Of a stretch of DNA of 64,000 bases, positions 23,146 to 48,907 are shown piece after piece. The notes below the pieces were generated by a model. The model was given only the letters and a program-made list of their open reading frames with translations, was not told the DNA's origin and did not search any database. The stretch lies in NCBI GenBank assembly GCA_045837725.1, contig JBEWZL010000215.1, positions 186,001 to 250,000 of the forward strand. Reading direction: 5' to 3'. The first letter of the stretch is position 1, and every line of letters begins with the position of its first letter. This DNA is from Vermamoeba vermiformis. Taxonomy: Eukaryota. The translations under genes and the position numbers were made by a program.

Positions 23146-24755
23146 ATGCAGTTGAAATATTTGATCTTGGTGTCTATTCTCGTGGCCTCGACCTTGGCCC
23201 AATTTGACAACCCAACTGTCAAGTTGCCTAAACTACGAGGATTGGATAAAATTGGCATTGGTTTTGATATTGTCAAGATGCAGCAATTGTGGTCCCCGAT
23301 CGAATTGACTTACATGGGCAAAACTATCACCAATCCCTATGACGATAATGATTATGAAATCCCTATGGAAATTGCATCCATTTCGACGCCTGATACGTTT
23401 ATTAACAAGACAACCAATGTAAGTTATAATAATTATTGCTCGCAGTCTTCAGGCGAGGCTATTTTTAATATTGTTGGTGCCACAATAACATTTATAATAT
23501 TGGTAATTATTAAATAATATTAATTGGCGTAAACTAGCGGATGGAATGGAATGTTCTCAAGTGTCAACGATAATTAAAAATATTATTGAACAGGTCTGGA
23601 ATACCGTCGAAGAATTTCAAACCACTAAGGGTCGTGCTACTGGTATTAGCTTGAACTTGGGCAATATCTTCGCGTTTACCAACACCCGCGAAACTCGTCA
23701 GATTAGGTATGGAAGTTGCTTCTTATGATGTATTTACCGCTAATTCATGTTACAAATGACGTAATCGTGTTTATACTAACCCGTTATGTGGTTTAGATAC
23801 ACCATGGACAATCGCAGCTACAGATACGGTGTGACCGAGCAAACTCACATTTTCTTTGAGGCCCAATTGTTCCCTCCTTTCTTGTTGAAGCTCTCCAGAA
23901 ATGCTAAGACCATGTTGGACAAGCTGCCTCGTTTCTCTGAGGCTACTAAGGCCCAGTAAGTCAGATGCGAAATTTTCCGCGGTATTAGCGCTTACTAACC
24001 TTTACCATTAAGATGGTTTCAGTTCTTCGATTACTTTGGCACACATTACGTCAAGTTTGCTCAATTTGGAGGTACTGTTCGCCGAGAGGAGTTGGCTAAC
24101 ATCGCCGAGTTCACCAGATTCGACGAGGATTATGTCAAGAAGCAATTCGGCATCTCTTTCTCGTAAGTCACGCTGCAGTACTCCTAGTTTGGAAGGAATT
24201 CAAGTTTACAGCGTTTGGAACGAATCCCTAATTTATTTCGTTGCAGATGGGGCACCACTCCCGCTTCAACTGCCCCTTGGACCCCGGGACCAATTAATGA
24301 CCCCACTGTCGGCGTGACTCAAGGCTGGCAAATCCCTACTAGAGTCGCTGTTACCCCTAGTGCTCGCGGTAAGATACATTTTGTGACACGTGTCAAACAT
24401 GTCACTCACGCGGACCTCCGTGTTATCAGGCAAGCGCTCTGTTGAAAAGGAGAACCTTCGTAGAGAGAAGCGTGAAGCGGAGCAATTCTCTTTCTCGTTC
24501 TATCAAATGCGTGAGGACTTGAAGCGTCAATTGGAGATCCGCTACACCGAGACCAGTGACGTTACCACTCGCTTGATTGGTGGTAACCCCACTCAATACT
24601 CGCCTGAGAACTGGCGCGACTGGGTTGAGAGCATCGTTGACAACCCCGTCATGATCTCTTACACTTTGGGCTCGATCGCTGACCTCATCCAAGATCCGAC
24701 CGTCCAAGCTGACATGACTCAAGCTATTGCTGCCAGAAATAGCATGCAACGTTAA
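23146..24755 (+). CDS. Secreted MACPF/perforin-like protein lacking C-terminal accessory domains
   Basis: Signal peptide, IGIGFDI, MACPF signature YFGTHYVKFAQFGG, LIGG...WRDWVESIVDNPVMI...IADLI; 6 exons. Confidence 0.9.
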
Positions 24756-37177: not shown

Positions 37178-39730
37178 ATGTGCGGTATTATCGCTATCCT
37201 AGGTTGCAAAGATCCCAAAGCTAGCCGTGCTAGAGCTGTCGAGTTGGCTACCAGGTAAACAATTGCTAGATGCGTTCGATTAATTAGCAATCCGATGGTT
37301 TCGTAGAAATATAATTAATCTGTATTCCCGCATTTTACCCTATTTATTGTAATTTTATTCGCTAACCGTCGGATTCAATCCACTGTAAATTGCGGATCCC
37401 AGCTCTAATGACTAGTTATTAATGCTTTTACTACAGAATTCGTCACCGTGGCCCTGATTGGTCAGGTTATCATGTTCAAGGAAACAACGTCTTCGCTCAC
37501 GAGCGTTTGGCTATCGTAGATGTCCAAAACGGTGCTCAACCCCTCTTCAATGAGGTAATTTCTTTGGCCGAATATTATTTTTAAATTATTTAGCACGTCA
37601 TTTCGGAATTTTTAGGGAGTTTGTTGCAAATCCAGCCAAGATATTGATTTATTTTTTTGACAGGACAAATCCATCGTCTTGGTTGTCAACGGAGAAATTT
37701 ACAACCATAAGGATATTGAAGCTCACGTATTGAAGGGTCAACATAAGTTTGCCACTCAATCCGATTGCGAGTGCATCGTTCACTTGGTATGATTTCATAA
37801 TTTGACGGATCCACGCCAGAAAAAGCGATTCACGAAAAAATCAAAATTCCATTATATTAATTATTTATTATCCATTATTAACCTACTTAAAATATTAGTA
37901 TGAAGAGAAGGGCAATGATTTTGTTAACGAACTTTCGGGTGATTTCGCTTTTGTCGTGTCAAAGGGTGACACTTACTTGGCAGCTCGTGACCCCATCGGC
38001 GTCGTAAGTAATACTTTATTATGTATATAATTATTAGAATATTAATACTAACCGATTGGTTTTTTTCTGAAACAGTGCCCATTGTACATCGGTTACGCTG
38101 CTGACGGTGCTGTTTGGTTCGCTTCAGAAATGAAAGCATTGATCGACGACTGCGAAAAAGTCGAAGTACGTCATAAGAACGGCGGCCTTGACATATAATA
38201 AGCATTGATATTAATATTATTGTTATTCTAGACCTTCCCTCCTGGCTTCTACTACACCCCTGAGACTGGTTTCAAGCCTTACTACCAACCCAAATACTAC
38301 GATATTCAAGTAAGCGATATACTTTTATGACTATATTAACCAAGTATATTAATATTATAAATGAATAGCACGTCCCCACCGTTAACTGTGATTTGGCCAA
38401 GTTGCGCGGTGCCTTCGAGAAGGCCGTTATCAAGCGATTGATGTACGTTGCAAAGACAATCTTAACGAGTGTTATTGACACGTGTCACTTAGGACTGACG
38501 TGCCCTACGGTGCTTTGTTGTCTGGTGGTCTCGACTCCAGTTTGGTCGCTGCCGTCGCTAACAGATTTGCTGCCAAGCGTGTCGAAGAAGATATGACCGT
38601 TCAAGGTACGCAAACACAATTTAATTAATTCTATAGCACGTGTTAATTTCATCATTAGCCTGGTGGCCTCGTTTGCACACTTTCTGCGTTGGTGTCACCA
38701 AGGAAAGTCCCGATATGATCAAGGCCCGTGAAGTCGCCAAGTACCTCAACACCGTGCACCACGAGTTCACTTTCACAGTCCAAGACGGTCTCGACGCCCT
38801 CAGAAACGTCATTTGGTTCTTGGAATCTTACGACGTCACCACCGTTCGTGCCTCCACTCCTATGTACTTGTTGGCCCGATGCGTCAAGAGCACTGGTACG
38901 TTACATATTGTACAGTATACAGTCATAATGCTATTATTTGTAGTTCTAGTCCTTGGCTAACGAATTCAAACCTTGACAGGTGTCAAGATGGTCTTGTCCG
39001 GCGAAGGCTCTGATGAAATCTTCGGTGGTTACTTGTACTTCCACAACGCGCCTGACCCTGACTCATTCCACCGCGAAACCGTTCGTCGTGTGAAGAACTT
39101 GCACTTGTCTGACTGCTTGCGTGCCAACAAGGCCTGCATGGCTTGGGGTGTTGAGATCCGTGTGCCGTTCTTGGACAAAGAGTTCCTCGACGTTGCGATG
39201 GACATTGCTCCCGTAGACAAATTGTGCTCCAAGGAACGCATTGAAAAGTACGTTCTGCGCAAGGCCTTTGACACGCCCGAAAACCCGTACTTGCCCGAGT
39301 CTATTTTGTGGAGACAAAAGGAACAATTCAGCGACGGTGTCGGCTACTCTTGGATCGACAGTAAGTCTCCGCATATTGCCTTTTTTGGAAAGTGTCGCGT
39401 GTATGCTAACTTGATACCTTGCAGCTTTGAGAGAATGGACTGAAAGTGAAGTCAATGAAGAAGAATACGCTCGTCGTGCTGAGCTCTTCCCTCACAACAC
39501 ACCTGCTACTAAAGAAGCGTTCTACTACCGCAAGATCTTCAGCCAATTGTTCCCCAACCCCACCGCCGACAAGACTGTCGTTCCTTGGGTGCCCACTTGG
39601 TCAGCGTACGTGCACATTAATTTTCTTACTACTTAGCATTATGAACTAATACCGTGCTATTATTAGTTCTACTGACCCTTCTGGCCGTGCTCAAAAGGTC
39701 CACGAGGCTGCATACGAAAAGAAGGAATAA
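37178..39730 (+). CDS. ASNS: Glutamine-dependent asparagine synthetase
   Basis: MCGI N-terminal nucleophile, [67 protein letters not shown]. Confidence 0.98.
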
Positions 39731-39976
39731 TTTTCGAGATCTTTTTTTTGACTTTGAGAAACGAAGCGTATGTTATGAGTATTATATAACAATATTATTT
39801 AACTTATTAATAAAGCGAAAATATCACCGAGTATTTTATTGTTAAATTTTTAAAGCAATAATCGTCGTTTCCAAATTAGGAAAGTGTTGAGTACACGCGA
39901 CATTAGCTCAATTGGGAAGTCTTCGCTCCCTCTAACGTTAGATTGTTTATATTTATAAATTTTGAAGCATACAGCC

Positions 39977-42503
39977 ATGTCGGTTTCACAAGAGCAGTTC
40001 GATCAGCTTTTATCAAACGTACGTAACTCCAACGTTGGTGTATGGCCACTAAACTATGCTTTCCCTAGTTTACTGCCCTTCAAGAGCAATTTAATTCGCT
40101 CGCTGTTGCTTTTGGCGAGATGCAAGCAGCGGATCCTGTTGGTGCTGTCAACATTTTGTGGGTCCTTTTAACTGCCGCTATGGTATTTTGTAAGTCAATT
40201 AATACCAGCCTTATATGTCTCTACCATTTCGTAATTAATACGGTCATTTTTAGTAATGCAGCTCGGATTTGCTATGCTAGAAGCAGGATCGGTACGCGCC
40301 AAAAATGCTCAAAATATTCTGTTGAAGGTAAGCCCTTGACAAACAAATGCTAGAATAAACCTTTAACGCTATTTTAACAGAATTTAATCGATACTTGTAT
40401 CGGCACGGTTGCTTGGTACACGATCGGCCACGGCATTGCGTTCAGCTCGAACCCTGAGGGAGGCAACGGCTTTATTGGCAACGGCACTGGAGAGTTTGCT
40501 TTTCATGACTACCATGACTACCACAGCTGGTTCTTTCAATGTAAGTACCTATTTATTTTTATCATTAAAATTTTTACTTCGGATGTCGTTATCCTTTTTC
40601 AATCCTATTTGCTCAAATTCAAGGGGATAAATCATATTATTAGTTTGTCTGTCTATTCTCATTTTTAAACGAAACTTAAACTAATTCTCGATGACGGTTT
40701 TTATAATCTTTAATATTATAGGGGCTTTCTCTGCGTCTGCTGCTACTATTGTTAGCGGTGCCCTCGCTGAAAGAGTCAAGTTTGAGGCCTATTTAATTTA
40801 CTCCTTCGTGGTCAGCGGCTGGATTTACCCCATCATCGTCCATTGTACGTGCAGCCATAGTCAAACCACTTCAAAATTATTAATGTGACATATATTATAG
40901 GGGTATGGTCTGCGGACGGTTGGTTGAGTGCTTTTAACTCTCCTCCTGGCGTTGCTGCTAACGGAGTTCTCGACTTTGCTGGATCCGGCGTTGTTCACCT
41001 TGTACGACCGAACTTAATTTGAATAATGTCATAACGATGTGTATTTAGGTTGGCGGTACTGTCGCCCTTGTAGGATGCATCATCTTGGGCCCTCGTTTGG
41101 GCAGATTCAGCGCGGAGGGCAAACCGAATCCAGGGTTTGAAGGCCACAATGCAACTTTGGTGTTGCTAGGTGCTATCATTCTTTGGTTTGGTTGGTACGG
41201 ATTTAACCCTGGCTCTACTCTCGGAGTCACTGGAGGCTTGGCGAACGTAAGTTTAAGTAAAAAGATCCGATCTGAGTTAAATTTATTTCTTAGGTCGCTG
41301 CTAAAGTCGCTGTTAATACTACTCTTGCCCCTGGCGTAGCAGCACTTACTGTATTAATATTCGAACGATATGTCTTTGCTGGTAAAACTTGGAACTTGAC
41401 TAAGGTTTGTACAGAGGCAAATCCGCTACGAAAGAAATTCTTTCTTTTTCTAATTGTGGCTTTAATATAGACCGTAGGCGGATTATTGGCTGGTCTCGTG
41501 GCAATCACCGCTGGCTGCTCAATCGTTGAACCTTGGGCTGCAGTTGTAATCGGATGTGAGTTCTTCAGCTCTTCGTTCTCAGCCCCTAGTTTAGTAACAA
41601 TTAATTAATTAATATATGCGCAGTTACTAGTGCGTTCATATTCATGGGCGGCTATCGATTGCTCTTACGATTGAAAATTGACGATCCTGTCGACGCAGTT
41701 CCCGTAAGCCACAAACATCATCATAATGACCAAATTGTGCTTATATTATAACTCCCTATATTAGGTGCATTGTTTTAACGGTGCTTGGGGCCTGTTAATG
41801 ACCGGTTTGTTCGCTACGCAGTCAGATCTTGTTGCCGCTTATGCTCGTGCTCCTGACGTTGCAGACTATGGTGCTTTTTTGGGAGTAAGTATTAGTTCAG
41901 TTGCTTAATGTTTATAGACGCGGTTGTCTCAATATTGCATTCATCTCCCAAGCGAGATTAATAATTTTATCAACGTTATTTCTCGGTTCACTGAAAGTTT
42001 TATTCCACCAGGGCGGTGGCTTGCAATTTGCCATGCAAGTCTTAGGCATGACAATGATCATCGGATGGTGCGCAGCCAATGCCATCGTCTTGTTCATCAT
42101 CCTCAAGTACAGCGGAATTTTCCGGGCCAGCAAACAGGAAGAAGAAAGCGGCATGGACGTGGTTAAGCACGGCGCGTACGGCTATTTATTCGATTACAAT
42201 CCGATGACTGGTGAAGCCCGTCTGAAAATCAACGCTGACGACCAATCAAACAACGTTAGTATCGCCGGCACATTTGTAGCCAAAGAATCGAATGCACAGC
42301 CCGCACAAGCTTCAGCGCGCAGTGTCAATGGTGCGGCTAAAAATAGCGACAACAACGCCATGGAGATGAACGATGTCGACGTTAAGCAAGATCAAATTCA
42401 CACAATTCGTTCGTCGTCGGAGTCCCCGGAGTCCGTGAGCAATGACAGCAGCGGTCAATCGAACAACAGCAACGACTCGTCAGACAGTTCACTGAACGAC
42501 TGA
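39977..42503 (+). CDS. AMT: Ammonium transporter (Amt/Mep family) with an S/N-rich C-terminal tail
   Basis: [57 protein letters not shown] (twin His present). Confidence 0.96.
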
Positions 42504-42621: not shown

Positions 42622-45600
42622 TCAAGGTTTCTCGGAATTATGTTCAGCTTCTTCTTTCAATTCTTTGATTTCTTGCTCCATGGTCGCTTCATCTTTCACT
42701 TCAACTTTCGCCTCGTTGATGTTATTAGAGTTCAAATTGTTGTCCATAATGTCGACTCGTTTCGGCTCCAAAGTGATGATCAGATTTGATTTTTCATCGG
42801 TTTCAACTGTTGCGTCCAACAACGAGCATTCGACACGTGACTTTAATCGATTTTTCTGTCTGGTGATTTTGAAGAAAATTGACATGATTTCTTTGCGGCC
42901 GTCAAGTCGCACGGCATAAGCAATGAACCCTGTTGGTTTGTGCACGTGATTGGGCCCTTGGAACGCGATGAACGAGATCGTGTTTTGTTTCGGGATCTGT
43001 GAAAAAATTAATGACACGTGTCAAAATAAATGTCAATGTAAAATCATGTCATTTTCAACGTACTCTATCAGGCGGGAATGTAAGCCACTCGCCGTGCTTA
43101 AGGACATTTTGATCGCGCTTTAAAATGATGTCCGTTTTGTTCTGAATCGTCACCGTGACAGTCTTGCCGAGCTGCTTTGAAGCATTTTTCTAAAAAAGGA
43201 AATAACGATGTAAGCTACGTATAATGCCTCGTATAATGAGCTTACTTTGTTGTTGTTTAGATCCACTTCGCTGCTCGACGAAGAGCTGTCAGGGTTCTCT
43301 ATGCCACCAATATCCGCGTCACTCAATTCACGTTTCATAATTGACATGGTTAGGGTCTTCAGCTCAGTACTGTCAATCACGTGGTTAGTAATATTTCCTA
43401 ATTAGGTAAATTGTAATAAATACATGTTTGTTGCAGGCTCTTGCACGGTGAATTCAATGCCGTCACTGGTCTTGCGATAATCAACGATTAGAGCGTTAGA
43501 ACTGTCGTAGGAATATTTCTTCGAAGCACCAAAATTGTTCCAAATAAAAAAGAAGGTCGCTGTTTGTTGAATAGGTTTCATCTCAGTGTCCGAAACTAGC
43601 GATTGATTGGCTGCTCGGTTTGACAGTGTAATGCTCTCTTTGCGCGGAGAAATTAAGGGGTTTTCAGGTCCGGCTACTTTTTCGACTTTAAGTTCTGAGT
43701 CAGAACGGCGTTTTTGCAACGGTTTTTTGGACTGTTGCAAAGGCTTGTAATCACATGCATATTCCATGAACCTAAAAAAGGAAATTTAAGTAAGTTGATG
43801 GTGATCTCTTTGTCGTGCCTACCCCTCAATACTATTAATATGCAACTTGTCCATTCTAATCGTAACATCGGCAGAAGTGAATGGCAACACGTAGTCGGGC
43901 GGAACATTAATCCACGTGCCATTTTTCAATTGCCACTGCTTGCGGAACAATTTGAACCTCGTGTCATTCTTGAGTGTCACTTTTAACTCGCCAGGATTGG
44001 TCGATCGTTCGTTAGAACCTTCAGAATGAGCTATAAATGGAAATTAGACGATTTTTCCGAATTAGGAAAAAATGTTGGTCTATGGATCCGTACCTCGTTC
44101 AAACTCTTGAATGGCCTGATGAATGACTTGTACTGCACGGGCAGTGCCGTGTTGTTCGCGAATATGCACGCCTAAAGTCTCAGCTTTTTTGCGCATGGTC
44201 TGATCCACGGCCATTTGCTTCAAAGCCGCGCCAAAGTTCTCGGGCGTCATTTCAACCACCTTAATGTGCTTGGGTCCAACACCCAATGCCTCAGTCTATA
44301 TTCATATTCATTAGCATTATAGTGTTATAGGTGCCGGCTAAATGACGTACGCGTTGAGCCCAGAAGAATTGGTCGCCAAAGAACGGAACAATCATGGTCG
44401 GAATACCCGCACGATAAGCAGCGGCTGCTGTGCCTGCACCGCCGTGGTGAACTGCAGCAGTCAATTGCGGGAACAGCCAATCATGTGGCACTGCGTCCAG
44501 CGGAAAAATAAAGTCGGGATATTGTTCGACATTCGTGCCACCCCAGCCTAATGAGAAAATTAGTTTACAATTTACTTATTTGGAAATATTGGTGAAACTC
44601 GTACCTTTTGCTAAGATCGCTCGTTGTCCAGATAATCGAACTCCTTCGATGATAGTTTTCGTAAGTGCATCTGGATCTTTGACGATGATAGATCCGAATC
44701 CGATGTAAATAGGCTTCGGTTCTTTCTCCAAAAATGCCTTCAACTCGGGTGAAGGCACGAAACTATATTTACGGCAGTTAGAAGTGTTATTGAAGTATTT
44801 AGAACAGATCCAGACTTACTCTTTTGGCGCATCCAAGAACCAATAGCCCACGACGTGAATTCTTCGGCCCCAGTCATGAGGTTTGGGCACGACAGAAGGA
44901 CTCCAGCAGTACATGTAATGAGTCTTGCGGAGCTCAGGAGCATTAGAGTCACTCGTGCTGATTGGCTCCAAGCCCAGCACTTGCGTCCTCAGTTTGTTGA
45001 TCATCGGCCGCAACATCAAGAAGGTACTTTGCTGCAGCACAAAGTAGCTACTAAGATTATAGATCGATGTAGTTTTTCCGCCCATAGCGAAAGGCTGTTG
45101 GGAATGTCAATTACCAAATAAGGAAATAAAAGTTTGAAACTTGCATGAGGGAACTGAGATGTCTGAGTCCAAGGCATCGTGAAGGCTACAATGAACGGAA
45201 TATTCAATTTTTCTGCGATATGAATTCCTGCAAAGCCTACATTACCAAATTAGTAAATCTCTGTCACGTGTCAAAATTAGGCATATGAAGTACGTACAAG
45301 GAGGATTCTCGATCAAGACGTCAGTGTCAGATTTGCAGGCCTCCCAACAGGTGTAAATAATGTCCTGCATGAACGACTTGAAATGTTTGTTGGCCTCGCG
45401 GATAAATTTCAACGAGAAGGTGTCATTCGTGACGCACAACTTGATGAGTTCGCGAGGGTCACCAGAGATCGGCGTGAATGCGATATTGTACGATTCGACG
45501 AAGGGCTGGTGGAGCTTGTGCGTGGCTATTTTGACTTTGTGGCCGTACTCTTGTAACTTGAGTGCTAATGCTACAAACGGCTGCACGTCACCGCGAGTAC

Positions 45601-47738
45601 CAACGAGTGTAATTGTAATTCTTTTCGACGGGATAGATTCTGAAAAAAAATTCTTAGAAAAATATGAAAAGGCATAGATTAGCTTTATACTTACTAAACT
45701 GTTCTACGTTGATATTTGACGGCAATTCTTCGTCAATACTTGTACGGTGCAAGTTGATGACTTCACCCTTTCTGCGCTTGGCTTGGATCCAAAGTTTGTT
45801 CAGGAAAGTAATAACTTTGGAGGTCTTCTTCAAGTGAATGAAATTGAACTAAAATATCATATTAGTCTCTTTCAATATTAATTATTCGTATAGTTTTTTC
45901 TTACGGAGTTGTCACGTGTCACTATTCTTAGCCCTGACGTAATGAAATGCATTGTTTTGTACTTTTTGATGGCAATAACTTCAGTGAACGGAATAATAAT
46001 CTATTATTATAGTTATTAATATAGCCTATAATAAGCTACATAATCGTGATTCCGTACCTTATTTTGTTTGCTGAAGTGATCGATAATGTTCGTGTTCCAA
46101 AAACTGATGTAATTGTCGGACAACAACAATTTGCCGTTGAAATCGAATGACTTGAACAAGGCGCAGTGATAAACAGCGTGCAAATGTTCCGTGCTCGCGA
46201 ACTTGAATTTGGACTTGAAGAGGTGTCTGTCATTGTCACTCACGACAAAAAAACTTGGCTCGACCGGGATCGGACCACTGTCAGTTTGAACATTGTTGTT
46301 GCTATTTGCGTCAGCAGTACTATCAATCTCGCCATTAGTGATAGTATTTTCTTTGGGCACCGAATCAGCATCTATTGAAAATCGGGCTTGGGAATGTTGG
46401 CGCGTGAAGATGTTCATGAATTTGAAGGGCTTTTTCGGAGCCTTTGCCCGATGTGTTTGTACTTGCTCTTTGATGAGCTTCTGGGCTATATTATTCTCGT
46501 CCATATGCAGGAATATTAACTAATAAGGCAATCGTTAGAAAGTGCTGTAAACTCACTGGATCGGAAGTTTTAAACCGAATTGGAAAAAATTTTAACTCCG
46601 CGAAATTATTAATAAATAGAAATAATATGCCTAGTAAATAGTAACTATAGTAGTCTTATTATAGCCATACCTCCTGATCATTGTCGAATTGAATGAATAT
46701 ACTTTTTGGGTATAAATACGAATCGCATATTTCTACGTCATTGACGCGCAAGTACGACAATGAAAAAGTCAATTGAACTAAAATATTGCCTTCTTGCGTC
46801 GAAGTAATGGAATCTGAAGGGCTTTGAGCCACGGCAATTTTGTGCTTGATAAGGTGGACCCAAGTATCGACTTCTTTCTCTGAGTCCAAAGAAATAAAGT
46901 AATTCCGCTTGCTTGTAGTCAATGAAATTGAGTTTTCGCGTAATGAGACAGTTTGATCGGTCTAAATTAGGAAGGTGAGCGAATCATTGCAATAATTGAT
47001 TGAGATCCATTTAGCTTACTTTCTCGACGCTAAACACATCGCACCATGGAATTACAGTCGATACTTTATACACATTCTATGATAAGAACAAAAAATTAGT
47101 CACGGGATCGCGGATTTGATTCCGTAAAACTCGGACTTACTTCTTTGTGGCTAGCGATAGACAAATGATCATTATTAGCGATAATAAAATGTCTCTTCCA
47201 TTTTTTCCCGGCCCTTCCGATATCCGCGTAGCCTTCTAGAAGCCTATTGCTCTTGAAAACACGGGATGAGATCCGCCCTATTCGCATAAAATGAAACTTT
47301 CAGACCTACCTCTAGCTTGGAGGGATCTTGTACAAAGCACAAATGATGCTCAAATATCACTAGATGCCCTAGTTGCTGATGTTTCTGAGGAGTTTGATAC
47401 GTACAAAGGAAATCTGAACCAGAATGAATAATTCGGCAAAAAATAGCATCTAATTGCAGCATTCGTACCATTTAAATATTTTTCGTCCAATGAATAATTG
47501 AAGTGAGTCCTTATTTTCTGAATATTTGCTGGATCCGAAACTTTTTCCGGCATTTTGTCAGCCTCGAATTCAACCATCGAAACCGACTCATGATCGGAAA
47601 TAGCATCACTTGTTGATTCTATTGTCGATGTCGTTGTCTCATTTTGAGCTTTTAATACGGTCAGATGCGTTCGATCGGATCAAGCGGAAGGGATTGAAAC
47701 TTACCAATTGAGACTAAATAAGTCGATAGGTCACCCAT
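42622..47738 (-). CDS. ATG26: Sterol 3-beta-glucosyltransferase (GRAM-PH-GRAM-GT1) with an extra C-terminal region
   Basis: [67 protein letters not shown]-terminal GRAM and PH segments. Confidence 0.92.
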
Positions 47739-47989: not shown

Positions 47990-48907
47990 ATGGAACCAGA
48001 TAAAGATAGCGGTAAAAACCTTTCAGTTCGGGTGCGGATAATAAAAGGTGTAATTGCGGTGTATAGAGAATGGAAGGCGGGGGAGCCATTTCAACGAAGG
48101 TACGCCTCTGCAGCAATTTTTAATGGCTGAAAAAATGTGAAATATATGTGTGTAATATGGTACAATGTCTAGACATTGAATTATTTAATTTTAAAAAATT
48201 CTATTCAAATTCAAATAATTCAATTTAATCCAGCTCCTACGTTGTGGTTCAATACGGCGACTTGACGAAGAAAACTACAAGAAAATATCGCACCACCTTT
48301 CCTAACTGGGATCAAACTCTATCGTTCGATTTAACGCCCATTCGAAAACTCAAGATCACAATGTTTTTCCAAGACGCTCCCGTAAGAAAATACTTATATG
48401 ATTAAGTAGTATTGACATAGTTATTAGGGCAAAGAAAAACGGGTCAGCAAGATTAAGCAAAAATTTGATGTCAAAGGGCAACAAGAAATAACTTACACAA
48501 AAGATATGCTTACTTATTCAATCCAAGTCGCACCCGCACCAAAAATTACCCCACAACCAACAATACCTTCCCCCACTCCTAAACATAAGGACTTTGAGTG
48601 GGACGAGGAAGACATCAGTGACGAACTTCCTGAAGATCCACCAGCCCAAAGTGACCCACCTCAAAGCGATCCAGAACCAGCACCAAGGTACCAAGTAGTT
48701 CAAAGAGTATTTGAAGCAGTACAGCCCGCCACTCCCGGTGCCTTGCTCGATTCACTGGTGAAAACACTGGTAGAAATACAACGTACCAAGCCTCACAGGT
48801 GCGAAGACGCTCTTGGCGAAATTTGTTTATATGGTATTTTCTATTTAATTGCCGTAGTTTGTATAATATTTATGGTTATATTTGTCCTAGTAACACGGAT
48901 GTTTTAA
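47990..48907 (+). CDS. C2-like domain protein with a C-terminal transmembrane anchor
   Basis: LSVRVRIIK...PSYVVVQYGD...TTRKYRTTFPNWDQTLSFD; P-rich linker; hydrophobic C-terminus GIFYLIAVVCIIFMVIFVLV. Confidence 0.65.

Follow-up and report, generated by a model that had tools for sequence, protein, structure and literature searches.

We analysed a 64,000-nucleotide (nt) stretch of the Vermamoeba vermiformis genome (contig JBEWZL010000215.1, positions 186,001 to 250,000 of the forward strand; hereafter the window), in which a minus-strand gene encodes an enzyme of the Atg26/Ugt51 sterol glucosyltransferase (GT) type. Splicing fuses its catalytic domain in frame to a tail of about 395 amino acids (aa) that holds two repeats, and structure prediction places the second of these in the aegerolysin/Cry34 fold. 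The same domain recurs in other genes of this genome. We propose, with a probability of about 0.5, that the repeat pair is a lineage-expanded cytosolic membrane-docking module on the enzyme.

Splicing joins the repeats to the glucosyltransferase

The 20-exon gene model (Table 1) runs from an ATG at 47738 to a TGA at 42622, contains no internal stops and aligns end to end with P0011, an intronless database homolog; three of its 5' boundaries carry an uncertainty of up to 2 nt. Five introns follow the catalytic domain (44093-44031, 43822-43772, 43423-43370, 43245-43190, and 43063-42997), all GT..AG, 51 to 67 nt long and 28 to 35% GC, and the exon chain that they leave has no internal stop. The second of them interrupts the first half of repeat 1, while the last, a phase-0 intron, interrupts repeat 2. 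Within the catalytic region, the intron 45144-45095 (minus strand) is of the GC-AG type and is backed by contigs from two sequencing runs, X1 and X2.

Splicing was assessed in 4 of 18 listed public runs (X1, X2, X5, and X16). X1, X2, and X5 are presumed to derive from RNA, none among the listed runs being on record as such, while X16 consists of raw RNA reads from a more distant relative (~90% alike). All five downstream introns are seen joined in at least one run. The 44030/44094 joint, which links the GT domain to the repeats, is present in X1 and X2 contigs and in eight raw X16 reads, where 80 bases are reduced to 17 letters, i.e., 63 are removed. Intron 43822-43772 is joined in X1, X2, X5, and 21 X16 reads, 43423-43370 in X2, 43245-43190 in X2 and X5, and 43063-42997 in X1, X2, and X5. 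A single X2 contig bridges the catalytic exons (45094) and repeat 1 (43535); no piece among those listed for the runs covers the entire gene. The fusion is also found in four intronless database proteins, P0001 (683 aa), P0011 and P0015 (1,314 aa each), and P0014, which carry the GT and both repeats in one chain. P0001 is 85% identical to the window over the repeat-1 exon.

If the linking intron were retained, translation would stop at about 44080, four codons in, yielding a GT-only protein. That such a protein is the main product, with the repeats as a separate gene or a minor isoform, is extremely unlikely. Contigs do drop rare variants, and the gene is spanned only in parts. Against this, the joint is spliced in three of the four runs, X5 having no coverage there; the intron-retained form (44093-44080) is absent from the four runs examined; four intronless homologs are fused; and a paralog on another contig (C63) carries the GT end and both repeat starts within one 338-aa open frame. 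Hence a transcript ending near 44080 with the repeats in a gene of their own, raised as a possibility in a preliminary description of this DNA, is countered by both the splice joints and the fused homologs. That description had correctly placed the two repeats that it quoted in frame with the enzyme. Its junctions at 44092/44031 and 43245/43190 stand, its donor near 43812 lies ~10 nt away, at 43822, and its list of three missed introns 43423-43370 and 43063-42997.

The enzyme resembles Atg26/Ugt51

Pfam analysis of P0011 finds GRAM in two stretches (E = 5.5e-21), PH (E = 3.9e-4, below the cut-off), Glyco_transf_28, and EryCIII-like_C; the Atg26/Ugt51 layout of GRAM-PH-GRAM, GT28_N, and EryCIII-like C-terminal domain is present on P0011 and the window exons. 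P0011 matches yeast Ugt51 (5GL5/5XVM) over the catalytic domain with an E value of 3e-93. In the window gene, the RGD motif keeps its catalytic Asp (45589-45587), and the GDQ motif is retained. In an alignment to 5XVM, with the numbering offset deduced, P0011 keeps the equivalents of Ugt51 D752, the catalytic residue, and of D1093 and Q1094, the sugar-donor pair (roles from PMC8883072). UDP-glucose:sterol glucosyltransferase activity is thus the expected function on sequence grounds. No signal peptide or transmembrane stretch is predicted (top 19-residue hydropathy, 1.25), so the protein is probably cytosolic and would face the cytosolic leaflet. In Pichia, Atg26 is brought to membranes by PI4P (phosphatidylinositol 4-phosphate) binding of its GRAM domain (PMC2063888).

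Repeat 2 is modeled as an aegerolysin/Cry34 fold

The two repeats resemble each other, with a BLOSUM62 score of 76 that was reached in none of 3,000 shuffles (mean, 31.8; maximum, 67). Repeat 1 carries a low-complexity insert of ~60 aa, overlooked in the preliminary description, and the other two GT paralogs of the genome have an insert in the same place. Relative to P0011, the repeats are 82 to 91% identical (91% for the second half of repeat 1), the linkers 56 to 70%, and the C-terminal tail 65%.

The repeats lie below the reach of the Pfam aegerolysin family, PF06355, which matched none of the window exons, P0001, P0011, or the 339-aa tail; for the repeat exons, Pfam as a whole offered no relevant family. 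PF06355 did match 3 of the 29 rows of our repeat alignment (two being the same P0021 domain; best E = 2e-4), and P0021 scored 21.7 bits, just under the cut-off of 22. Searching the V. vermiformis genome with PF06355 gave no hits, but the controls failed too, making this search uninformative. More sensitive comparisons were as follows. Among 1.84 billion representatives searched, seven matched the tail, including the tandem-domain proteins P0021 and P0022, and P0022 in turn matches Cry34Ab1 (E = 3e-8). A profile built from non-GT domains only recovers P0011 repeat 1 (E = 3.7e-9) and repeat 2 (E = 9e-12) among 123 targets. A 13-row profile that includes the window exons finds Cry34Ab1 at E = 4e-20 and actinoporins at ~0.08, while OlyA, PlyA, and RahU are unlisted at E values up to 10. 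Among language-model neighbors in the Atlas, those of repeat 2 fall in clusters with PF06355 in 14 to 28% of members (0.92 to 0.93); leads for the repeat-1 exon are all below 0.9. Aegerolysins are defined (PMC9505663) as acidic, stand-alone proteins of 15 to 20 kDa. By this strict trait the window protein differs, being a chain of 1,311 aa whose repeat 2 has an isoelectric point (pI) of 9.9 in P0011.

The fold was modeled with AlphaFold on the P0001 tail, using the 29-row alignment; a single-sequence model of P0001, with a predicted local distance difference test (pLDDT) score of 31, was set aside. The alignment is shallow because scans of prokaryotic genome contigs for repeat homologs gave nothing usable (41 pattern matches, 0 confirmed), and it has some near-duplicate rows and a few intron-derived stretches. 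As it also held more canonical family members, the model depends partly on the sequence assignment. It shows two all-beta domains, mostly at a pLDDT of ~90, with the repeat-1 insert at low confidence. Repeat 2 superimposes on Cry34Ab1 (4JOX) with a Z score of 16.1 and a root-mean-square deviation of 2.0 Å over 111 of 118 residues, of which only 14% are identical (Foldseek E = 1.1e-5). Z scores are 12 to 13 for actinoporins, 11.7 for RahU, 11.6 for OlyA, 11.2 for nakanori, 8.2 to 8.5 for fungal fruiting-body lectins, and 7.8 or less for unrelated folds. Matches to the Vps13 VAB, MSP/VAP, and thaumatin structures (Z < 8) were taken as background.

The aegerolysin/Cry34 fold claimed for both repeats in the preliminary description is thereby borne out, in the model, for repeat 2. 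Repeat 1 is a candidate for this fold. Its profile match covers the first half only; the second half has three predicted strands plus one at low confidence. The strand order of repeat 1 parallels that of repeat 2, and the best structural alignments all fall on repeat 2. A profile of the C-terminal half of the domain detects the second half of neither window repeat. A shared fold for repeat 1 would therefore rest on first-half homology and strand order.

The fungal fruiting-body lectins, which share the fold (Atlas, 0.87), raise the idea that the repeats bind a sugar headgroup, such as that of the sterol glucoside product, and serve feedback or retention on product-rich membrane. We consider this very unlikely, as the lectin scores are far below that of Cry34Ab1 and the RhoGAP, SH3, and inositol-phosphate kinase carriers described below would be left unexplained.

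The domain is spread over many genes of the same genome

Three exon-seeded searches place the aegerolysin/Cry34-like domain at a minimum of 10 loci of the genome. Its partners at 10 loci are sterol GTs (three), SH3 (two), and RhoGAP, PX, inositol-phosphate kinase, PH/FYVE-like, and EEP domains (one each). The RhoGAP link (E = 2e-20) is confirmed in the intronless protein P0143, and the inositol-polyphosphate kinase shares an open reading frame (ORF) with the domain. One ORF holds both a FYVE-like finger (E = 0.0014) and a repeat half, with PH also at that locus. The two SH3-linked genes encode an HR1-like coil plus SH3 domains, and the remaining partners are PX (E = 0.03) and a sphingomyelinase/phosphatase-like EEP domain (E = 0.064). 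No lone 15-kDa aegerolysin is apparent among the 10 loci.

Two repeats, an insert in repeat 1, and a common phase-0 intron in repeat 2 mark all three strong GT paralogs. This suggests that the domain joined the enzyme once, before the three-paralog split. In the paralog on contig C113, repeat 2 keeps a canonical W-N-N-P motif, and the repeat-1 insert is far longer.

Repeat-bearing glucosyltransferases form one clade

GT homologs were surveyed through the 120 matches listed of 5,440, mostly fungal. Only two of these 120 bear the repeats (P0025 and P0026, orthologs of the C113 paralog), and the fungal, plant, and oomycete proteins among them all lack a repeat tail. The earlier statement that little follows the GT domain in fungal Atg26 holds only in part, since 61 of the 120 listed homologs have C-terminal tails of >150 aa. 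Many early-diverging fungal Atg26 homologs, those of Mortierellales (P0037, P0039, P0042, and others) among them, have tails of 200 to 300 aa with no match to the repeat profile. In P0041, a related GT, the corresponding C-terminal position is occupied by a FYVE finger (E = 4.6e-8). A search for longer proteins found 4 among 7,999 candidates, which is weak evidence on distribution; with the listed GT matches mostly fungal, further fusions may exist in other amoebae.

In a tree of 28 GT proteins, picked by hand, the repeat-bearing enzymes form one clade (support, 95/90). This clade tentatively groups with a Planoprotostelium enzyme and unnamed protist proteins (80/94).

Membrane docking and its alternatives

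The proposed mechanism is as follows. The enzyme would be a cytosolic, peripheral-membrane UDP-glucose:sterol glucosyltransferase, and its C-terminal beta-sandwich pair may, together with the GRAM/PH region, help dock it to an endomembrane or phagosome from the cytosolic side. In this lineage, the domain would act as a general-purpose module, like PH, PX, FYVE, or C2. We infer membrane binding by the repeats. The fold superfamily to which they belong consists of membrane-surface binders, which supports docking, and the aegerolysin EryA, expressed inside Escherichia coli, localizes to sites assigned to cardiolipin (PMC9505663). Pore formation by the repeats is not expected, and they are probably no specific sensor of sterol or sphingomyelin (SM).

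The sensor idea was that of the preliminary description, in which toxin-derived modules recognize sterol/sphingolipid domains and steer the enzyme to its sterol substrate. OlyA, PlyA, RahU, actinoporins, and nakanori share the fold with Z scores of 11 to 13, and one carrier locus has the EEP-like domain. OlyA6 recognizes SM or ceramide phosphoethanolamine (CPE) only when cholesterol is present (PMC9905591). In RahU, W94, within a W-x-x-P-W loop (W90...P93-W94), is required for binding to sphingolipid membranes (PMC7985367). The corresponding positions, equated by motif rather than by residue-level structural alignment, read F-K-I-T-R in repeat 2 and W-N-N-F-G in repeat 1, against W-x-N-P-F/Y in the family; repeat 2 of the paralog P0026 retains W-N-N-P-I. 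The closest relative, Cry34Ab1, lacks this specificity, its receptor being neither SM/cholesterol nor CPE/cholesterol (PMC9505663). The repeat profile, as noted, does not list OlyA, PlyA, or RahU, and most carrier genes have no sterol substrate. Sphingolipids reside mainly in the outer or luminal leaflet, and the predicted exposure of this protein to the cytosolic leaflet counts against their being sensed. With the loop degenerate, the protein probably cytosolic, and such a receptor lacking in the nearest relative of the fold, we abandon the toxin-derived sensor as the preferred account and regard it as improbable.

Several points weigh against membrane docking itself. Docking is a proposal from predicted fold and domain context. 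Judged at the motif level, repeat 2 has lost the lipid-contact loop, and repeat 1 has a shortened one. Charge varies widely, the pI of repeat 2 being 9.9 in P0011 and 7.0 in the paralog P0026, and that of the RhoGAP-linked copy 4.2; with charge differing so much among copies, the repeats give no sign of a common anionic-lipid surface, and the pI range of 4.2 to 9.9 also led us to discard the idea of a conserved basic patch. The repeat-1 insert is itself well conserved (83% identity to P0011), which weakens the contrast between repeats and linkers. The SH3, PX, PH, and EEP fusions are deduced from neighboring exons rather than transcripts, and the PX, EEP, and FYVE partner matches are below the Pfam cut-off. 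In the enzyme, Ugt51 S1072 is replaced by A and M851 by F in P0011. Finally, the putative receptor of Cry34Ab1 is described as a protein (PMC9505663), and by analogy these data may fit protein binding equally well.

In an alternative reading, the repeats are protein-interaction modules, so that a partner protein, rather than lipid, would anchor the enzyme and the other carriers. Because Cry34-type subunits act as docking proteins, this is a strong rival, although we think it doubtful overall. Cry34Ab1 and AfIP-1A are receptor-recognition and docking subunits (PMC9505663), and both the degenerate lipid loop and the wide charge variation among copies fit an adaptor. The adaptor-binding repeats of Vps13 are a weak structural neighbor (Z = 7.6; Foldseek E = 5e-3), but this match is within background. 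Among proteins of this fold, most of those characterized bind membranes; in addition, the FYVE finger that P0041 carries in the same slot suggests a lipid-targeting role for that slot.

Features of the gene and its neighborhood

Table 1. Positions of the glucosyltransferase gene, its parts, and related loci (window coordinates unless a contig is given)
Feature	Position	Strand	Description or evidence
Whole gene	42622..47738	-	20-exon model, ~1,311 aa, GRAM-PH-GRAM-GT28_N-EryCIII_C plus tail with two repeats, repeat 2 modeled as the aegerolysin/Cry34 fold and repeat 1 a candidate for it
N-terminal targeting region (GRAM, PH, GRAM)	45695..47738	-	Pfam on P0011; GRAM match on window exon
Predicted sterol 3-beta-glucosyltransferase catalytic domain (GT-B, Ugt51/Atg26 type)	44094..45639	-	P0011 versus yeast Ugt51; Pfam on window exons
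Linking intron, 63 nt, GT domain to repeats	44031..44093	-	Joints in X1 and X2 contigs and 8 X16 reads
Repeat 1, first half: five beta strands, LKVTLKNDT...LKNGTW...PP...IEGFMEY	43753..43989	-	Profile match, pLDDT ~90
Repeat 1 insert, ~60 aa, low complexity	43567..43752	-	Alignment; pLDDT mostly <50
Repeat 1, second half (...IEFTVQ), divergent from family consensus	43438..43566	-	Strand prediction; P0011 identity
Repeat 2, complete predicted aegerolysin/Cry34-fold beta-sandwich	42760..43165	-	Superposition on 4JOX; Foldseek
Acidic C-terminal tail and TGA stop	42622..42759	-	Translation; 65% identical to P0011
Further GT paralogs, each with two-repeat tail	C63:85359-88475 (L003); C113:17500-25500 (L034)		
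Non-GT carrier loci	C239 (L005; homolog P0143), C145 (L009), C235 (L013), C243 (L014), C123 (L016), C180 (L006), C61 (L002)		

On the plus strand, at ~40388-42503, lies what we take by its motifs to be an ammonium-transporter-like gene, whose 3' end converges on that of the glucosyltransferase gene, ~120 nt apart; exons at ~38637-39845 (plus strand) are presumably asparagine-synthetase-like. X1 and X2 contigs continue from 48099 (48099-48200) into sequence further along, which suggests a spliced, expressed neighboring transcript upstream of the glucosyltransferase gene. A MACPF-domain gene (23804-24728, plus strand) is located ~18 kb from the glucosyltransferase, with no link to the repeats shown; MACPF is a large family in this genome, with 27 matches.

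Significance

Work on aegerolysin-fold proteins has dealt almost exclusively with small toxin subunits and with probes of outer-leaflet sphingolipids, and a 2022 review terms their function enigmatic (PMC9505663). In this genome, the fold is built into lipid and Rho-signaling proteins that are presumably cytosolic, at 10 or more loci and below Pfam detection, and this multilocus use offers a direct test of a nontoxin role. Of wider interest is that a toxin-type fold seems to serve across the lineage as a cytosolic module. Tentatively, the aegerolysin/Cry34 fold may even form an unrecognized class of domains that read cytosolic phospholipids, in the manner of C2, PH, PX, and FYVE. In this protist lineage, it would send a coherent set of proteins (sterol GTs, a RhoGAP, SH3 adaptors, an inositol-phosphate kinase, and PX and PH/FYVE-like proteins) to a single compartment, for instance the phagosome. 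If true, the toxin subunits would be outward-facing relatives of an intracellular membrane reader. Such modules could yield new lipid probes for the cytosolic leaflet.

Comparison with known systems

The architecture is made of known parts and is, as far as searched, undescribed. Searches of the open-access literature yielded no report of a GT-aegerolysin fusion or of the domain in Rho or lipid-signaling proteins, and the terms "amoeb," "multidomain," "multi-domain," and "additional domain" are absent from the 2022 review (PMC9505663).

The fungal enzymes Saccharomyces cerevisiae Ugt51 and Pichia PpAtg26 share the GRAM-PH-GRAM-GT layout, the catalytic Asp, and the Asp-Gln pair; the window enzyme differs in its two-repeat tail of 395 aa and in the replacement of S1072 and M851. 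P0041 is the same enzyme with a small domain, FYVE, after the GT, whereas the window enzyme has a toxin-type fold in that slot. FYVE is a reader of phosphatidylinositol 3-phosphate (PI3P), and Dictyostelium Ugt52 is a sterol glucosyltransferase with a C-terminal FYVE finger. The C-terminal slot of these enzymes thus accepts varied targeting modules: none, FYVE, or an aegerolysin-fold pair.

Repeat 2 shares its modeled fold with Cry34Ab1 (Gpp34Ab1, 4JOX), but the latter occurs as a separate 14-kDa crystal protein that has a pore-forming partner, while the repeats are a tandem pair within a large, probably cytosolic enzyme. The sphingolipid-binding aegerolysins (OlyA/PlyA and RahU) and the actinoporins have the same beta-sandwich. 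Compared with the former, the window repeats have no PF06355 match, the P-W loop is missing or shifted, and repeat 2 is basic, not acidic; in actinoporins, the pore-forming N-terminal helix lies outside the core matched by repeat 2.

In apicomplexan proteins of the MAL13P1.321 type, an aegerolysin pair is combined with an inactive Swt1-HEPN domain (Anantharaman et al. 2013, PMC3710099), and P0021, from the tail search, has this layout. These proteins likewise use the pair as a module on a nontoxin domain in a protist. There, however, the pair is N-terminal and the authors of that study propose a host-directed effector, whereas in the window it is C-terminal on a lipid enzyme and, in the same genome, the domain is spread over many signaling genes.

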